Source: a virus (Duplodnaviria > Caudoviricetes). From it: DNA of 64,000 bases. Position 1 is the first letter of the stretch. Each line of letters starts with the position of its first letter. Shown in pieces: positions 2,364 to 56,475 of the stretch. Under the pieces are notes generated by a model that worked only from the letters and a program-made list of their open reading frames with translations, did not search any database and was not told where the DNA came from. Location of the stretch: the IMG/VR virus record IMGVR_UViG_3300037067_012889, positions 1 through 64,000 of that record; one strand, given 5' to 3'. The position numbers and the translations under genes are program-made.

Positions 2364-3320
2364 ATGATTTTAAATCTACGAGTACGGCCGATAAATAACG
2401 CTAAACGTGAAATAATATTACCACGTGCAGCGAGAACTGTAATCAAGCAACAGCCCGCTGTTACTAAGGTATTGCGTGCAGCGATGCGTCCAAAGCCGGT
2501 GACACCGGTAAAGATGACACCTGCGGTCAATCGTCGAATGCCGGTTATGCCAAAGAGGGGTATCGCCGGAGCAGCTAAGCCGGTAGTTGCCAATTCGAAA
2601 CCCAAAAAACCGATCACGAAAATAATTACTCGTGATCCGCCAGAAGGTAGCACGAAAAAACTACGCGAGCTGCATAATACTTGTGTTGGTCGCATATTGG
2701 TTATCATCGGCAATGGCCCGAGTGTTTTGGAAGTCGATACAGCACGATTATCCGAAAATCCGCGTGTCGATGTTATGTCGATAAATAAACCAGACCTTCG
2801 AGTATGGCCCACAAAATACTGGTTGTTCTGTGATATTTCGCAGCTAAAAAGGCATAACGAGCTATGGGCTAGATATAATGGCTACATATTCAACTCAACC
2901 ATGATTAATGAATCTAGACCGGGAACAATCTTTGTAAAAAACATCCCTGGTTTTGGATTTAGTACCGACTTGGCAAGCGGATTCAATATCGGAAGATCGA
3001 GCGTCTATGCAGCAATGCAAGTAGCATTATGGTTAGGATATGATAAGATATATATTTTCGGTATTGATATGGGTGCTGTCACTGTCGATGGTAAAGAAAT
3101 GCTACACTTCTACGGTGTTAACTTAGATTGCACAGCAGATAGCCGTAAAAAAAGGTTCGCCGAAGAAGCCAAATATTACGAAGACGCAGCACGAACATTA
3201 CCTGAGGAAATTAGGAAAAGATTCTATTTTTGCAGTTCATATAATCGATTTAAATTCCTGGATTATTACAATAGGTTGGATCACCACGCAGCTCTAAAAA
3301 TGATTTGTGACAATGTGTAA
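2364..3320 (+). CDS. MAF/DUF115-like or sialyltransferase-related glycosyltransferase-fold protein with basic N-terminal extension
   Basis: IIGNGPS and ALWLGYDKIYIFGID motifs; about 95 aa K/R/P-rich leader. Confidence 0.65.
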   Translation: MILNLRVRPINNAKREIILPRAARTVIKQQPAVTKVLRAAMRPKPVTPVKMTPAVNRRMPVMPKRGIAGAAKPVVANSKPKKPITKIITRDPPEGSTKKLRELHNTCVGRILVIIGNGPSVLEVDTARLSENPRVDVMSINKPDLRVWPTKYWLFCDISQLKRHNELWARYNGYIFNSTMINESRPGTIFVKNIPGFGFSTDLASGFNIGRSSVYAAMQVALWLGYDKIYIFGIDMGAVTVDGKEMLHFYGVNLDCTADSRKKRFAEEAKYYEDAARTLPEEIRKRFYFCSSYNRFKFLDYYNRLDHHAALKMICDNV

Positions 3321-3327
3321 ATAAATT

Positions 3328-3975
3328 ATGCTAACTCAAAACCTGACTTGTCCATATTGTAGTTCAGAATTTTCAGCAGCTGTATGGGTTGATGGTAAAT
3401 GTGATAAATGTGGTGGCAATTACTATTGGTCGATGGAATTCAATAAAGATCTGACCGATGGTTGGCATGTCATAGAATGGGACAAAAAGAAGTCGATTTA
3501 TATCGCCTCTACATTATCAAATTGGGAACGTGTCAGGGCATTCGTTAGATGTTTTAAGAGGTTAGATATTCCTATAGCATTCGATTGGACGACATATGGA
3601 GAAGAAATCTTCTCTATAAGGGCACCACGTGATTTAGATCCAATATCGTTACGTCAGAAAGCTTTTTGTGAATATAATGGCGTATCGTCGGCGTCATATG
3701 TGTTTGTAATAGAACCAAGCGGACGTGGGACAAATTTCGAATTTGGTATAGCATATCAACGATTTAAAGCCACAAATAACCCAATAATTACAATCCTAGA
3801 CGAAACAGAGACGACAACGCCAGTTAGTTTTCATTATTTGCCAGGTATCAAAAGAACAAAACATGTTAAAAATGCCATTATTGACATTCTGAAACATTTC
3901 GACATTTACATCAAAGATACAGATATCGAAATGCTTGTCCATGATTTGGAGAATTATGATGTTGGATCAGAATAA
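3328..3975 (+). CDS. zinc ribbon fused to nucleoside 2-deoxyribosyltransferase / dNMP N-glycosidase-like domain
   Basis: CPYC...CDKC at the N-terminus; IYIAS and GRGTNFEFGIAY (catalytic-Glu motif GTxxExGxA). Confidence 0.65.
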   Translation: MLTQNLTCPYCSSEFSAAVWVDGKCDKCGGNYYWSMEFNKDLTDGWHVIEWDKKKSIYIASTLSNWERVRAFVRCFKRLDIPIAFDWTTYGEEIFSIRAPRDLDPISLRQKAFCEYNGVSSASYVFVIEPSGRGTNFEFGIAYQRFKATNNPIITILDETETTTPVSFHYLPGIKRTKHVKNAIIDILKHFDIYIKDTDIEMLVHDLENYDVGSE

Positions 3976-8472: not shown

Positions 8473-9281
8473 GCGTTAAACTAGCTGCTTATATGGACGA
8501 GGTTTTCGATGATCCAGACAAGGCTGGTTGGTTATTAATATCAAAGAAAATCACTAATGTCTGCCTTCGTCGTGCTTGGTGTCGCGACATATCAAGTATG
8601 CCAGATAATGCTATAGGTATACTTGATAACACGCTAACTAAATACGGTTTGTCGCCAGTAATGTTATCTACCGACATAGGTTGTGTAGATCCTGAGAAAC
8701 TGGCTGCCGAAGAACAAAAATTTATCAGAGCTTTACAAATATGCAAATTTTTGAAATGCAAGGCGATTCGTGTCGGTCTTGGCACTACATCGACAAATAA
8801 AAATGCCAGTGAATATGTCCAAAAATGGTTATCGCTCACTTCAAAGCTAAGCATATCATATGACATGTTGTTGCTATTCGAGCCAGAAAGTACAAGCTAT
8901 TATAACCAGCCAGCATCAATCGCGGTCTTCCTAAGCAAATTCAGAAGATGGCAATTGCTACTAGATCCAGCACTACTTGTAATCAGATCAAAAATCAATC
9001 CGTTCGTAAAGTATTGGTCTTTATTGAAATCGCGAACAAGTTTTATCGATATTCATGATTTCAAGAGTGGGAATTCTGCGAAACCAGCTGGATTGGGTGA
9101 TGCACAGCTAGATATTCTGATTGCGGATGCTCTGGTCAACAACTTCACAGGGTGGTTTTGTTTAGAACCGGGTCTTGGTCGCCGATATGGCGATGCGATG
9201 ACCAAAGATAAGACATTCTTATGCGCCCTTGACGCATTTCAAGCACTACTACAAAGAGTACAGTTACCAAAAATTTTATAG
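8469..9281 (+). CDS. sugar phosphate isomerase/epimerase-like (xylose isomerase/AP endonuclease 2 TIM barrel)
   Basis: LAAYMDE, LLFEPE, LLDPA, IHD, PAGLGD and CLEP motifs; ATGA overlap with purZ. Confidence 0.75.
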   Translation: MSVKLAAYMDEVFDDPDKAGWLLISKKITNVCLRRAWCRDISSMPDNAIGILDNTLTKYGLSPVMLSTDIGCVDPEKLAAEEQKFIRALQICKFLKCKAIRVGLGTTSTNKNASEYVQKWLSLTSKLSISYDMLLLFEPESTSYYNQPASIAVFLSKFRRWQLLLDPALLVIRSKINPFVKYWSLLKSRTSFIDIHDFKSGNSAKPAGLGDAQLDILIADALVNNFTGWFCLEPGLGRRYGDAMTKDKTFLCALDAFQALLQRVQLPKIL

Positions 9282-54357: not shown

Positions 54358-54437
54358 AATTAAAAAGTCATCGGTGTCGTGCTAAAACCAATCAGACAAT
54401 TAAAAAATCGTCGGTGTCGTGCTAAAACCAGTCAGAT
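54358..54437 (+). repeat. 2 x 40-bp tandem repeat, each containing CGTGCTAAAAC promoter-like motif
   Basis: Period 40; TCGGTGTCGTGCTAAAACCA is identical in both copies. Confidence 0.9.
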
Positions 54438-54461
54438 AAGCATTATAGGAGATATTGAGAA

Positions 54462-55178
54462 ATGTGCGAACCCTGCCACAGCATTGTACAATATCCAGAT
54501 CACGATGACGACGATCGATCGTCTGGGACGCCGACCGAACAGCGCGTTTCCAAGATGAAACTTGGGGAATGGCTTCGGAAAATTGGCCAATGGCTCCATT
54601 TGTCCAAAATGGGCGAAGGCCATACCGAAGCTGTTCAGAAGATGAGCCATCAATCGGAACTCTTCCTCCCAGCGGCCCAACTCTACCTCCCAACTCCAAC
54701 CCTCTACGAAGTGAATTGGTGGGAGCGCACATTGCACATCGACGGTGCATTCCGTGGCGGATTCAATGGAATTGGAAGAAATGGCCTCGCGAGGTACTCT
54801 GCCGAAAATATGGCTGCTCGTAGAGGAGTCAACCAACTTCTCGAACAAGAGGCCAAAAAAGCGGCGCAACAATATGCGAATGCTGTCTCTATCGGCAGTA
54901 TGACTGCATTGCGCAGGTTTCTCACAACATCTATGGAAAAGAGTGTAATGCCGTGGAGGTACATTGAGCTGTTTAAGGAAATGCTTAATGCAGCCGGTCA
55001 AAACAAGTTCCTTCAAAAAATCGGGTCACTTACAATGCGACGTGGCCGTATCGAAACGAGGAATGCCAAAAATGCTACTAAAGTTATGATGTGGTTCACT
55101 CGGAAGCGCGAGTTCCTTATCCCCGAATGGGCAGACGACAAGCGTCTGTGGGTGCCAAACAAGTCCGTCATGGAATAG
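54462..55178 (+). CDS. basic hypothetical protein
   Basis: AGGAG SD; alternative start at 54555. Confidence 0.7.
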   Translation: MCEPCHSIVQYPDHDDDDRSSGTPTEQRVSKMKLGEWLRKIGQWLHLSKMGEGHTEAVQKMSHQSELFLPAAQLYLPTPTLYEVNWWERTLHIDGAFRGGFNGIGRNGLARYSAENMAARRGVNQLLEQEAKKAAQQYANAVSIGSMTALRRFLTTSMEKSVMPWRYIELFKEMLNAAGQNKFLQKIGSLTMRRGRIETRNAKNATKVMMWFTRKREFLIPEWADDKRLWVPNKSVME

Positions 55179-55426
55179 GACGCCGGGTCATAGCCTTAGT
55201 CTGGTACGCACCCGTCGCTTTACAGCCCATTCCACTAATGGTTGTCAAGAAAGGAGCAAATACAACTCGGTTGCCACTTGGAAAATAGTGGCCGTCGTGA
55301 CCGACCAGAAAAGGTCTGTGGGATTGCCCATATAGGTAGTTCTAGTTTCTAGACCGTGATAATAAGTCTAGAATTATTATCACACCAGTCGAACAAGCTT
55401 GAACCCTATCATCTGGTGGTGTCTTA
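55176..55426 (+). ncRNA. candidate multi-helix structured ncRNA
   Basis: Closing helix 55176-55184/55418-55426 encloses at least six hairpins and an 8-nt loop-pairing element. Confidence 0.55.
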
Positions 55427-55459
55427 AATATTAAAATTAAATGAAGAACGAAAAATGTG

Positions 55460-55496
55460 GGCAGCGGGGAGTAGAACATCACTACTCCCCGCTGCC
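55460..55496. terminator. 15-bp perfect stem-loop
   Basis: GGCAGCGGGGAGTAG / CTACTCCCCGCTGCC. Confidence 0.7.
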
Positions 55497-55674
55497 GTAT
55501 TTGAAATGTATGGTTATATTGGTCGACCCCTGTGCTCATGGTCCGCATATCTGGTGGCCAGCCAACATGTGGTGTTATCTTGGTTCCTATATCGATTTCC
55601 TCCGATTAGAGAAGACGCATATTATAGCTAGACGAAATGTCTATTACTTTTCTAAAATAGAAAATTGCTAAGAT

Positions 55675-56475
55675 ATGTATACGACAACTCCGCGTTTGAT
55701 TGCATATCGTGGTATGTCCAAGACAGTTAGAGATTGGGCGATTTTTCTCGGCATACCAGAGACCACTATTCGTGGCAGAATAGCAAGGGGATTGCGGAAT
55801 CCAAGTGAGATTCTGAGTGCGACCTATGCAGCAAACTATGACCATTTAGCACGAACTATTACCTATAATGGTAAAACTCAGTCAGTACAAAAGTGGGCAC
55901 AGGAGCTCGATTTACCGGCAGTCACAATTCATAGGCGAATCAAAATAGGCATTACAAACCCAGAAACACTGCTTTGTACAGACAGACTCGCCAGCAAAAG
56001 GGAAACGATAGAGTACGAAGGCCAATTATGTTTAATTAAAGAATTAGCGGCCACTCGCGGGATTTCAACTACACAGCTACGTAAGCGACTAAAGCATGTC
56101 TCTGTCGAAGAAGCCCTGTCACCGTCATATACTTATCCTGTACGCAATTACCCAGCAACAAGATATACTTGTAATGGCGAAACATTAACGATGCGTGAGT
56201 GGGCAAAAAAGCTCGGATGTACTAGACAATGCATCCATTTACGTCTAAAATCATATCCGCCAGAAATTGCATTAGATCCGATAAAATGGGCGAAATATCC
56301 CATGCATATTGGTCATAGTGGTGGAAAAGTAGCGAAAAGATATGCTTGTAATGGTAAGTCGTTAACCATTCGAGAGTGGGCAAAAAAGCTTGGATATCGA
56401 GAATGCACAATATACGAGCGCTTAAAGAAATATCCAATAGAAATCGCACTAAAGAAACGCAAATGGCTCCGATAG
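55675..56475 (+). CDS. tandem HTH-repeat DNA-binding protein (homing-endonuclease-type accessory repeats, no nuclease domain seen)
   Basis: Five repeats of (Y/C)xGxxxTxxEWAxxLGxxxxTIxxRL. Confidence 0.75.
   Translation: MYTTTPRLIAYRGMSKTVRDWAIFLGIPETTIRGRIARGLRNPSEILSATYAANYDHLARTITYNGKTQSVQKWAQELDLPAVTIHRRIKIGITNPETLLCTDRLASKRETIEYEGQLCLIKELAATRGISTTQLRKRLKHVSVEEALSPSYTYPVRNYPATRYTCNGETLTMREWAKKLGCTRQCIHLRLKSYPPEIALDPIKWAKYPMHIGHSGGKVAKRYACNGKSLTIREWAKKLGYRECTIYERLKKYPIEIALKKRKWLR

Follow-up and report, generated by a model that had tools for sequence, protein, structure and literature searches.

What does a gene-dense phage genome keep in about 250 nucleotides that hold no credible open reading frame (ORF) and lie directly behind the gene of a basic protein? 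The stretch in question, 55176–55426, belongs to the first 64 kb (64,000 nt; hereafter the window) of the IMG/VR virus record IMGVR_UViG_3300037067_012889, which comprises 363,885 bp and represents a giant, uncultured phage. A model that saw only the letters and their ORFs had proposed a multi-domain structured RNA at the end of the gene 54462–55178, and we refer to this proposal as the first-pass annotation. Comparison with related sequences indicates that the stretch is a member of an uncatalogued family of pseudoknotted non-coding RNAs, found in uncultured giant phages at the 3′ end of genes that all belong to a single orphan family. That it is a real, functional RNA is, in our judgment, almost certain.

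Within the window, the plus strand of 55176–55426 folds with a predicted energy of −81.8 kcal/mol, compared with −64.5 ± 4.5 kcal/mol for dinucleotide shuffles, none of which was as stable in 200 attempts (z = −3.85); the minus strand reaches z = −3.19. The complementary segments listed in the first-pass annotation are all present at their positions, and its choice of the plus strand is borne out by the G-U pairs and by the motif and model matches behind the gene, every one of which lies on the gene's strand. Together with helices that covary in relatives, the folding energy confirms a genuine multi-domain structured RNA on this strand.

Alignment scans of metagenomes returned 6 loci from IMG/VR and 52 from JGI, and we considered a locus evaluable if it extended at least ~200 nt past the gene. 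By a tally that combined a custom motif scan, matches to the covariance model R1 and inspection by eye, the RNA lies behind the gene in ~40 of the 46 evaluable loci, always on the gene's strand and with covarying helices, down to protein identities of 27–35%; in L035 and L045 the copy is ambiguous. The phages linked in this way are very distant and differ in their other neighbour genes, yet adjacency and strand are kept.

In loci with 27–40% protein identity, a far smaller element occupies the same place. Its core of ~75 nt runs in the order P1 5′ strand, J1/2 (5–140 nt), P2, UU, P3, P4, AAU, knot 3′ strand and P1 3′ strand. In these distant loci P2 is a 4-bp stem, commonly ACCC/GGGU, whose loop consists of G, RYYRG and 2–5 nt ending in A (consensus G-RYYRG-nAAA). 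The RYYRG of this loop pairs with a complementary tetramer or pentamer (CYRR) just before the P1 3′ strand and thereby forms an H-type pseudoknot. P1 itself measures 4–9 bp and has an unrelated sequence in each lineage, but the same position, 0–7 nt past the knot, while P4 is a simple, covarying hairpin of 4–5 bp. P1 and the knot have the 3′ strand of the latter in common, P2 and the knot its 5′ strand; to judge by this topology, P1, knot and P2 could be stacked in a single rod, with P3 and P4 projecting from it.

Within the sequences compared, every helix of this core covaries. P2 occurs in eleven different 4-bp versions across loci, every one of them paired, and all five modelled pairs of P3 have changed on both sides across the family. 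The knot is found as GCCAG/CUGG, ACUGG/CCAGU, GCUGG/CCAGC, AUCGG/CCGAU, GUCAG/CUGAC, GCUAG/CUAG(U) and GCGAA/UUCGC. It was also picked independently by RNAalifold from an unfitted MAFFT alignment of 13 compact copies, with the pair types CG 11/UA 2, CG 7/UA 6 and GC 7/AU 6. With R1, built on compact cores and searched at a limit of E 0.02, we retrieved 22 copies at E-values up to 0.013, all on the gene's strand. In the core alignment A7 (these 22 sequences, fitted to the structure of the model), 86.2% of the cells pair, compared with 32–43% in controls with slid 3′ partners; the covariation score reaches 0.656, whereas no control exceeds 0.148, and 14 of the 15 pairs show changes on both sides. 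About ten unpaired nucleotides are conserved as well, namely CA ahead of P2, G following the 5′ strand of P2 and AAA preceding its 3′ strand, UU past P2 and AAU before the knot 3′ strand.

The window copy is an expanded form of this core. R1 does not score the expanded copies, so that their homology rests on alignment and on the shared core motif. The close loci, with at least 54% protein identity (L002, L004, L009–L013, L016 and L017), were compared separately from the ~30 distant relatives, in an alignment (A2) of nine clade members, i.e. the window and eight close relatives. In the close loci, the stretch behind the gene retains 76–88% nucleotide identity, above the 54–66% of the protein; the differences cluster in hairpin loops, insertions among relatives are confined to loops and J1/2, and L016 lacks one entire sub-domain. 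RNAalifold predicts 61 pairs for the close-relative alignment, 19 of them with compensatory changes. With the pseudoknot included, 96.7% of the cells of A2 pair, compared with 26–48% when the 3′ partners are slid, and 13 pairs have changed on both sides, compared with 1–4 in the slid controls.

It is by three hairpins in the 5′ half, one ahead of P1 and two in J1/2, and by a branched P4 domain that the window clade attains its ~240-nt form; J1/2 and the P4 loop, where the clade has acquired additional hairpins, are both sites that tolerate insertions. The loop of the hairpin ahead of P1 (P0) takes inserts of variable length, which form 15–50-nt hairpins in L010, L012 and L013. In the first J1/2 hairpin (55240–55267), which is 100% paired, the AAGGAG of the loop is invariant in the clade and the closing pair alone varies (G-U, A-U, G-C); in the second (55268–55297), the loop UGGAAAAU is replaced by a GAAA tetraloop in L016. 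The branched insert enclosed by P4, absent from L016, includes the hairpin 55356–55383, five pairs of which have changed on both sides. Its 8-nt loop GUCUAGAA is invariant, above a covarying stem, in all eight clade members that have the hairpin, and holds the palindrome UCUAGA, through which two copies of the RNA could dimerize by loop–loop pairing.

These comparisons also sort the helices of the first-pass annotation. GACC/GGTC and TGTGGG/CCCATA are kept in relatives, as P2 and P3 respectively, and GTGATAATAA/TTATTATCAC with its loop GTCTAGAA (55356–55383) finds support there as well. The helix drawn at 55268–55303 survives in its inner part, GCCACT/AGTGGC, but not in its outer part, CGGTT/GACCG, which is not kept and clashes with P2. 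As for the proposed 9-bp closing helix, TAGGACGCC/GGTGTCTTA (55176–55184 with 55418–55426), the 5′ strand is complementary in no relative; the relatives instead pair GCACC (55208–55212) with GGUGY (55418–55422), i.e. with the same 3′ strand, and the proposed helix is either specific to the window or a chance complementarity. GGGT/ACCC is missing among the helices that relatives keep. In ACCAG/CTGGT, a second ACCAG (55384–55388) had been mistaken for the partner, since the CUGG at 55413–55416 pairs with the ACCAG of the P2 loop (55304–55308). Finally, the pseudoknot suggested between the loop GTCTAGAA and TTCTAGAC falls away: its partner at 55347–55354 is missing in relatives, and the complementarity arises only because UCUAGA is a palindrome. 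Table 1 lists the features as we now place them.

Table 1. Gene, RNA helices and flanking signals in the window (positions count from its first nucleotide).
Feature	Position	Strand	Evidence
Two tandem promoter-like units (TTAA, 15 nt, GTGCTAAAA) in a 40-nt direct repeat	54360–54427	+	Sequence
Gene of a 238-aa basic orphan protein, N-terminus MCEPxHSIVQ	54462–55178	+	ORF
Whole structured RNA, ~240 nt, beginning 4 nt past the stop codon	55179–55425	+	Folding z, clade alignment A2
P0 hairpin, GCCGGG (55182–55187) with UCUGGU (55200–55205)	55182–55205	+	Compensatory U-A to C-G, U-G to G-U
P1 5′ strand GCACC, partner 55418–55422	55208–55212	+	GCACC/GGUGC kept in clade
J1/2 insert hairpin GGUUGU/ACAACU, 16-nt loop with AAGGAG	55240–55267	+	Alignment A2
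J1/2 insert, 11-bp hairpin, loop UGGAAAAU	55268–55297	+	99% paired; both sides changed in 3 pairs
P2 hairpin of the core, GACC (55299–55302)/GGUC (55313–55316), loop G, ACCAG, AAAA	55299–55316	+	11 paired versions
Knot 5′ strand (P2 loop), ACCAG	55304–55308	+	Covaries with 3′ strand
P3 hairpin, UGUGGG (55317–55322)/CCCAUA (55327–55332), loop AUUG	55317–55332	+	Covariation
P4, AUAGG (55332–55336)/CCUAU (55405–55409)	55332–55409	+	Covaries in distant loci
Pseudoknot 3′ strand CUGGU, conserved (A/C)AU just before	55413–55417	+	Covariation
P1 3′ strand GGUGU	55418–55422	+	Clade alignment
15-bp G+C-rich hairpin	55460–55496	unspecified	Sequence

How exclusive is the link to the gene family? The 364-kb genome of the window phage carries exactly one copy of the RNA, and R1, which scores compact copies only, detected none beyond the known ones in the whole records of five relatives; it recovered the known copy in just one of these five. 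A scan of all IMG/VR with the commonest core pattern gave 16 matches, of which two are genuine and both lie behind this gene, while the other 14 are mostly coding-looking sequence. One of the 14, at 454–500 (−) of the 4-kb IMG/VR contig L076, which does not contain the protein, resembles the motif in part: P1 (as a closing helix of 9 bp), P2 and the knot have counterparts in CCC-G-AUCAG-UAA-GGG ... CUGAUC, whereas P3 and P4 are missing and R1 gives E 0.2. It could be a chance match or a reduced variant. Two or three tandem copies of the RNA stand behind the gene in L007, L020, L030, L053 and L079, and probably in L054; such amplification in five or six lineages fits an RNA product that is needed in amount. 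In three loci (L007, L030 and L078), motif and gene overlap in the final codons of the latter. In the last of these (8644–8722, +), from a phage of 278 kb, ~65 nt are inserted into the P2 loop past the knot strand, and the neighbourhood has a J-domain/kinase gene in common with the 44-kb region of the window.

The protein that precedes the RNA is as little catalogued as the RNA itself. In a collection of 5.8 billion proteins it has 31 close clusters, 174–249 aa in length (most 197–249), none with a Pfam domain; a profile search of 1.84 billion representatives yielded 204 clusters (50% identity), with 197 below 1e-10. Of those listed, most measure 180–260 aa (range 134–318, the shortest being fragments), and there is no tail into other families. 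The family, of 190–260 aa and from uncultured large phages, is sharply bounded. Among 185,579 species genomes, the protein occurs on one contig of a metagenome-assembled genome only, again with two RNA copies. Across 135 members, C2, P4, S7, G53, H54, W86, D94 and Y167 are invariant. The first-pass annotation was right to call the protein basic: its isoelectric point (pI) is 9.6, and 10.5 in its C-terminal half, with a family median of 9.0.

Searches with the sequence gave chance matches only against Pfam, PHROG, NCBIfam, PADLOC and a PDB sequence profile; no Pfam family recurred over the 135 members, no PADLOC model matched the six members scanned, a language-model look-alike search returned no usable match, and neither the protein (tblastn) nor the DNA had a match among GenBank phages. 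The predicted structure is itself confident. While a first AlphaFold2 model from 28 sequences reached a predicted local distance difference test (pLDDT) of 64, that from 135 sequences reached 88, with a predicted template modelling score (pTM) of 0.87, and shows an N-terminal α/β domain and a C-terminal helical domain. Both models were compared with the PDB in Foldseek and in a wide VIA-align search, the first also with ESM Atlas by shape and the second with BFVD. Foldseek found nothing below E = 0.065 in the PDB and BFVD, with rows ranked mainly on the C-terminal domain; VIA-align, against 48,161 chains, found nothing above Z 5.2 with the 135-sequence model, and the ceiling for both models together was Z 6.2. 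The weak rows are generic helical bundles and ferredoxin-like folds (Cas2, IS200 TnpA, PII-like). We set aside a reading as HUH nuclease or single-stranded-DNA enzyme, for which there were only Foldseek rows at E 0.4–1.3 with root-mean-square deviations of 8–14 Å.

The setting of the RNA suggests that it is made together with the gene. A 40-nt tandem duplication ahead of the gene (54360–54439, +) carries one promoter-like box in each copy, with GTGCTAAAA at 54379 and 54419, and the two units likely mark the start of a gene-plus-RNA transcript. From the gene to the RNA, no promoter box of the type GTGCTAYAA was found, a recurrent motif for which the window holds 50 matches where 26.5 would be expected. 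Since the RNA lies on the same strand, directly behind the gene and with no separate promoter box in between, its synthesis as the 3′ tail of the gene is most likely. The 15-bp hairpin that the first-pass annotation saw next is present (Table 1), and likely acts as a two-way terminator that ends this transcript. A long perfect hairpin follows the RNA at a distance of 18–116 nt in 25 of 34 loci, with T-rich tails in 18 of these 25; the scan measured stems up to 12 bp, and in 21 loci the stem has at least 12 bp. The usual order across loci is gene, RNA, hairpin and then further genes on the same strand. Run X8, labelled RNA-Seq, contains a single 238-nt contig identical (100%) to 55231–55467; the RNA nature of the run is a guess and its data are contigs, so that it does not count as evidence of expression.

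Does the RNA belong to any known family? Rfam has nothing at 55176–55426, neither at gathering thresholds nor at E-values up to 10, and when this region and compact relatives were scanned permissively, in pieces of 100–500 nt, chance matches of 8–23 bits resulted, against cut-offs of 40–100. We found no description of this RNA in the literature, and the expectation that it would match no family has held. The RNA fails the testable defining features of each known family with which we compared it. Of the roles first suggested, that of a CsrA sponge would call for many GGA motifs in hairpin loops, but its only hint is a single conserved AAGGAG loop, which is restricted to the window clade and absent from the compact core; the CsrB model scores 8 bits in L053, outside its RNA copies. 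A small ORF started by the AAGGAG loop was likewise rejected, as neither start codon nor frame is conserved. We also rejected a group I intron, an idea prompted by the likeness of the downstream ORF 55675–56475 to the DNA-binding region of an HNH endonuclease, given that the protein is full length (190–260 aa) in all relatives, that no Intron_gpI match was found and that the helix-turn-helix ORF downstream (see below) is missing in L002 though the RNA is present.

Several known systems are nevertheless instructive. The layout of HutP and the hut mRNA is alike, with a regulator gene, here a putative RNA target, a terminator hairpin and downstream genes, but the HutP site consists of UAG repeats that overlap the terminator, whereas here a covarying knot precedes the hairpin by 35–60 nt, and no relationship between the protein and HutP was detected. 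The preQ1-II and SAM-II/V riboswitches share the short G-C hairpin, the pairing of its loop with a 3′ strand, the A-rich strand and the hairpins in a long loop; they differ in their conserved nucleotides, in that the RNA described here is 3′ of its gene, and in that no Rfam model matched it. Tails such as the tRNA-like structure (TLS) of turnip yellow mosaic virus likewise have four helices of roughly tRNA-arm size and a pseudoknot between a loop and a 3′ strand that coaxially extends the terminal stem, and tRNA genes sometimes adjoin our RNA. It has, by contrast, no CCA end and no T-loop or D-loop signatures, its J1/2 varies from 5 to 140 nt where a tRNA has a 2-nt spacer from acceptor to D arm, no CCA is conserved past P1, and ARAGORN and the Rfam tRNA, transfer-messenger RNA (tmRNA) and TLS models made no call on it. 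ROOL, GOLLD and the ω RNAs of IscB and TnpB are unannotated structured RNAs of phages and mobile elements too, some of them 3′ of a partner gene. None of them gave a sequence or model match; ROOL and GOLLD are far larger, the partner protein here is no nuclease of the RuvC/HNH type, and a variable end that might serve as a guide was not seen. Overall, the topology resembles that of H-type pseudoknot aptamers and of pseudoknot-stemmed tRNA-like structures, and by analogy the RNA would work most like the protein-partnered RNAs of phages and mobile elements, such as type III antitoxins, ω RNAs and the HutP site.

What, then, might the RNA do? We consider it most likely to be the partner or target of the upstream basic protein. 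Transcription from the boxes ahead of the gene would produce it as the gene's 3′ tail; its P2 loop would pair with CYRR to complete the P1–knot–P2 rod, with P3 and P4 branching off, and the protein, which resembles nucleic-acid binders in its charge, would recognize the knotted core. The RNA might then be trimmed from the mRNA into a stable RNA–protein particle, or the protein might use it as its own site of feedback or read-through control ahead of the terminator. What suggests that the two act together is their exclusive and ancient adjacency, the placement on one strand without a separate promoter box, the tolerance of tandem amplification and the charge of the protein. We regard functional coupling as probable and direct binding as quite possible; the explanation as a whole, coupling included, appears to us evenly balanced.

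A number of observations weigh against it. Behind the most divergent genes fetched (L080, L081 and L082) and behind the gene in L032/L055, no RNA is recognizable, and the protein can accordingly exist without an adjacent RNA, unless the latter has diverged past detection. Neither profile nor structure searches recognized an RNA-binding domain or a known fold in the protein. The alignment A7, being fitted to the structure of the model, favours pairing. Support for the coupling comes from sequence comparison, and adjacency by itself could reflect shared transcription rather than physical interaction.

Among the alternatives is a purely cis-acting 3′-untranslated-region (3′-UTR) element: the knot, bound by the protein as in HutP or on its own, would set the read-through of a terminator 40–60 nt downstream or protect the 3′ end of the mRNA, with no separate trans-acting product. 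That the order of gene, RNA, hairpin and same-strand genes is the rule, that the RNA lacks a promoter box of its own in the window and that it overlaps the end of the coding sequence in some loci all agree with this. However, no competing terminator/anti-terminator pairing was seen, nor any alternative pairing of the RNA's 3′ strands with the terminator stem, which lies 35–60 nt away; the tandem copies of five or six lineages would be unusual for an attenuator, and in L021 and L059 tRNA genes follow instead of a clean terminator, so we hold this to be a minor possibility. If the RNA were instead a small-molecule aptamer or a self-cleaving ribozyme, the conserved unpaired nucleotides around the compact knot would make up a ligand pocket or an active site, and only regulation or processing would connect it with the gene. 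The clustering of the ~ten conserved unpaired nucleotides at the P2/knot junction would suit it, as would the size and modular inserts, which recall riboswitch aptamers and small ribozymes, and the A-rich strand beside a G-C helix, an arrangement known from the preQ1 and SAM-II type knots. Set against these are the position of the RNA after the gene rather than before it, the absence of a consistent expression platform and of any Shine–Dalgarno or terminator sequestration among the structures inspected, and the lack of a match to a known aptamer or to any Rfam riboswitch or ribozyme model in scans of 100–500 nt. The ribozyme of the first-pass annotation gains nothing here, as nothing pointing to a known one was seen and the helix order differs from that of the pistol, hepatitis delta virus (HDV)-like, hammerhead and twister ribozymes. 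An aptamer or ribozyme of this kind is distinctly improbable.

Equally concerned with the RNA alone is the proposal of a stable small RNA, for example one serving as a decoy to a defence protein, a host RNase or an enzyme that handles tRNA; it would be co-transcribed with the gene but would not touch the protein. It draws on the four-helix, roughly cloverleaf-sized core with its pseudoknot-built stem, on the tRNA or tRNA-like genes near the RNA (adjoining it in L021, L059 and L077, elsewhere in the loci L007 and L033) and on the preservation of the core while the protein falls to 27–35% identity; we think it quite unlikely, as the RNA was never found apart from the gene family in the collections searched and keeps adjacency and strand in very distant phages with differing neighbours. 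A type III toxin–antitoxin (TA) pair, lastly, would consist of an RNase-type toxin and the knotted RNA that neutralizes it and that the toxin may itself cut. Type III antitoxins are pseudoknotted RNAs encoded beside their toxin, often as tandem repeats. Those of ToxIN (ToxI), CptI and TenpI resemble the RNA described here in being pseudoknotted, on the same strand and beside one protein gene, sometimes in tandem and in a phage-related setting; the tandem copies in five or six of our lineages and the invariant His, Ser and Tyr of the protein fit as well. The antitoxin repeats, however, precede the toxin gene, with a terminator in between, and measure 34–36 nt, whereas here the RNA is downstream of the protein gene, usually in one copy, and spans 75–240 nt, which include a closing helix and two hairpins more. 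On the protein side of the toxin–antitoxin-like pair of the first-pass annotation, no PADLOC model of any kind matched, in a scan without a ToxN-specific test, and neither Foldseek nor VIA-align, which ranked mainly the C-terminal domain, listed a chain resembling ToxN. We deem such a pair very improbable.

A bolder version of the preferred protein–RNA reading goes further. The pair might form a new phage ribonucleoprotein particle (RNP), in which a metal-independent, RNase-like protein, Cas6- or ToxN-like and possibly with an RRM/ferredoxin-type N-terminal domain, would cut out its own RNA and stay bound to it, the particle then acting on a host or phage target; or the RNA might found a new class of ribozyme or aptamer. 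Such an outcome, which we consider unlikely, would add a new class to a short list. Even a mere 3′-UTR stabilizer would be a useful annotation for the phage genomes behind ~200 protein clusters. Orphan genes abound in giant uncultured phages, whose non-coding RNAs have been described in very few cases; here, a cleanly defined family with strong covariation offers a pseudoknotted core of a size that suits structural work, and its single candidate partner, with a confident predicted fold for which no relative was found, makes the RNA–protein question directly testable.

Some further observations concern the neighbourhood of the RNA. In the window, Rfam 15 finds four tRNA genes at 37.7–40.1 kb. 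A scan of 36 loci placed tRNA genes next to the RNA in L021 and L059, and at other positions in L007 and L033; such neighbours being only occasional, we dropped a link to tRNA clusters. In L077, a 69-nt tRNA-Ala-like gene (8832–8900, +) lies past RNA and hairpin; Rfam aligns both ends of the tmRNA model to it at 31 bits, below the cut-off, and it may be a stand-alone tRNA-like domain. A link to RNA repair was abandoned as well: an RNA ligase gene stands near the module in L077 and RtcB in L078, but the window genome has neither. Beside the RNA locus of L005, TACTTTG is repeated six times in tandem and forms a hairpin (3333–3390, +), and in L034 an eightfold tandem repeat of GAAGACAT/GAAGACAC begins right past the stop codon (3190–3260, +).

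Directly past the hairpin of the window, a conserved ORF of ~53 aa (MVILVDPCAHGPHIWWPANMW..., 55510–55671, +) has a clear homologue at the corresponding place in L002. The next ORF (55675–56475, +; 266 aa) encodes about five tandem helix-turn-helix modules and matches the DNA-binding part of PHROG 3377 'HNH endonuclease' (E 5e-27), without a nuclease domain. Since L002, a close relative, has no such ORF at the corresponding position, it looks like the inserted or decayed remnant of a free-standing homing endonuclease.

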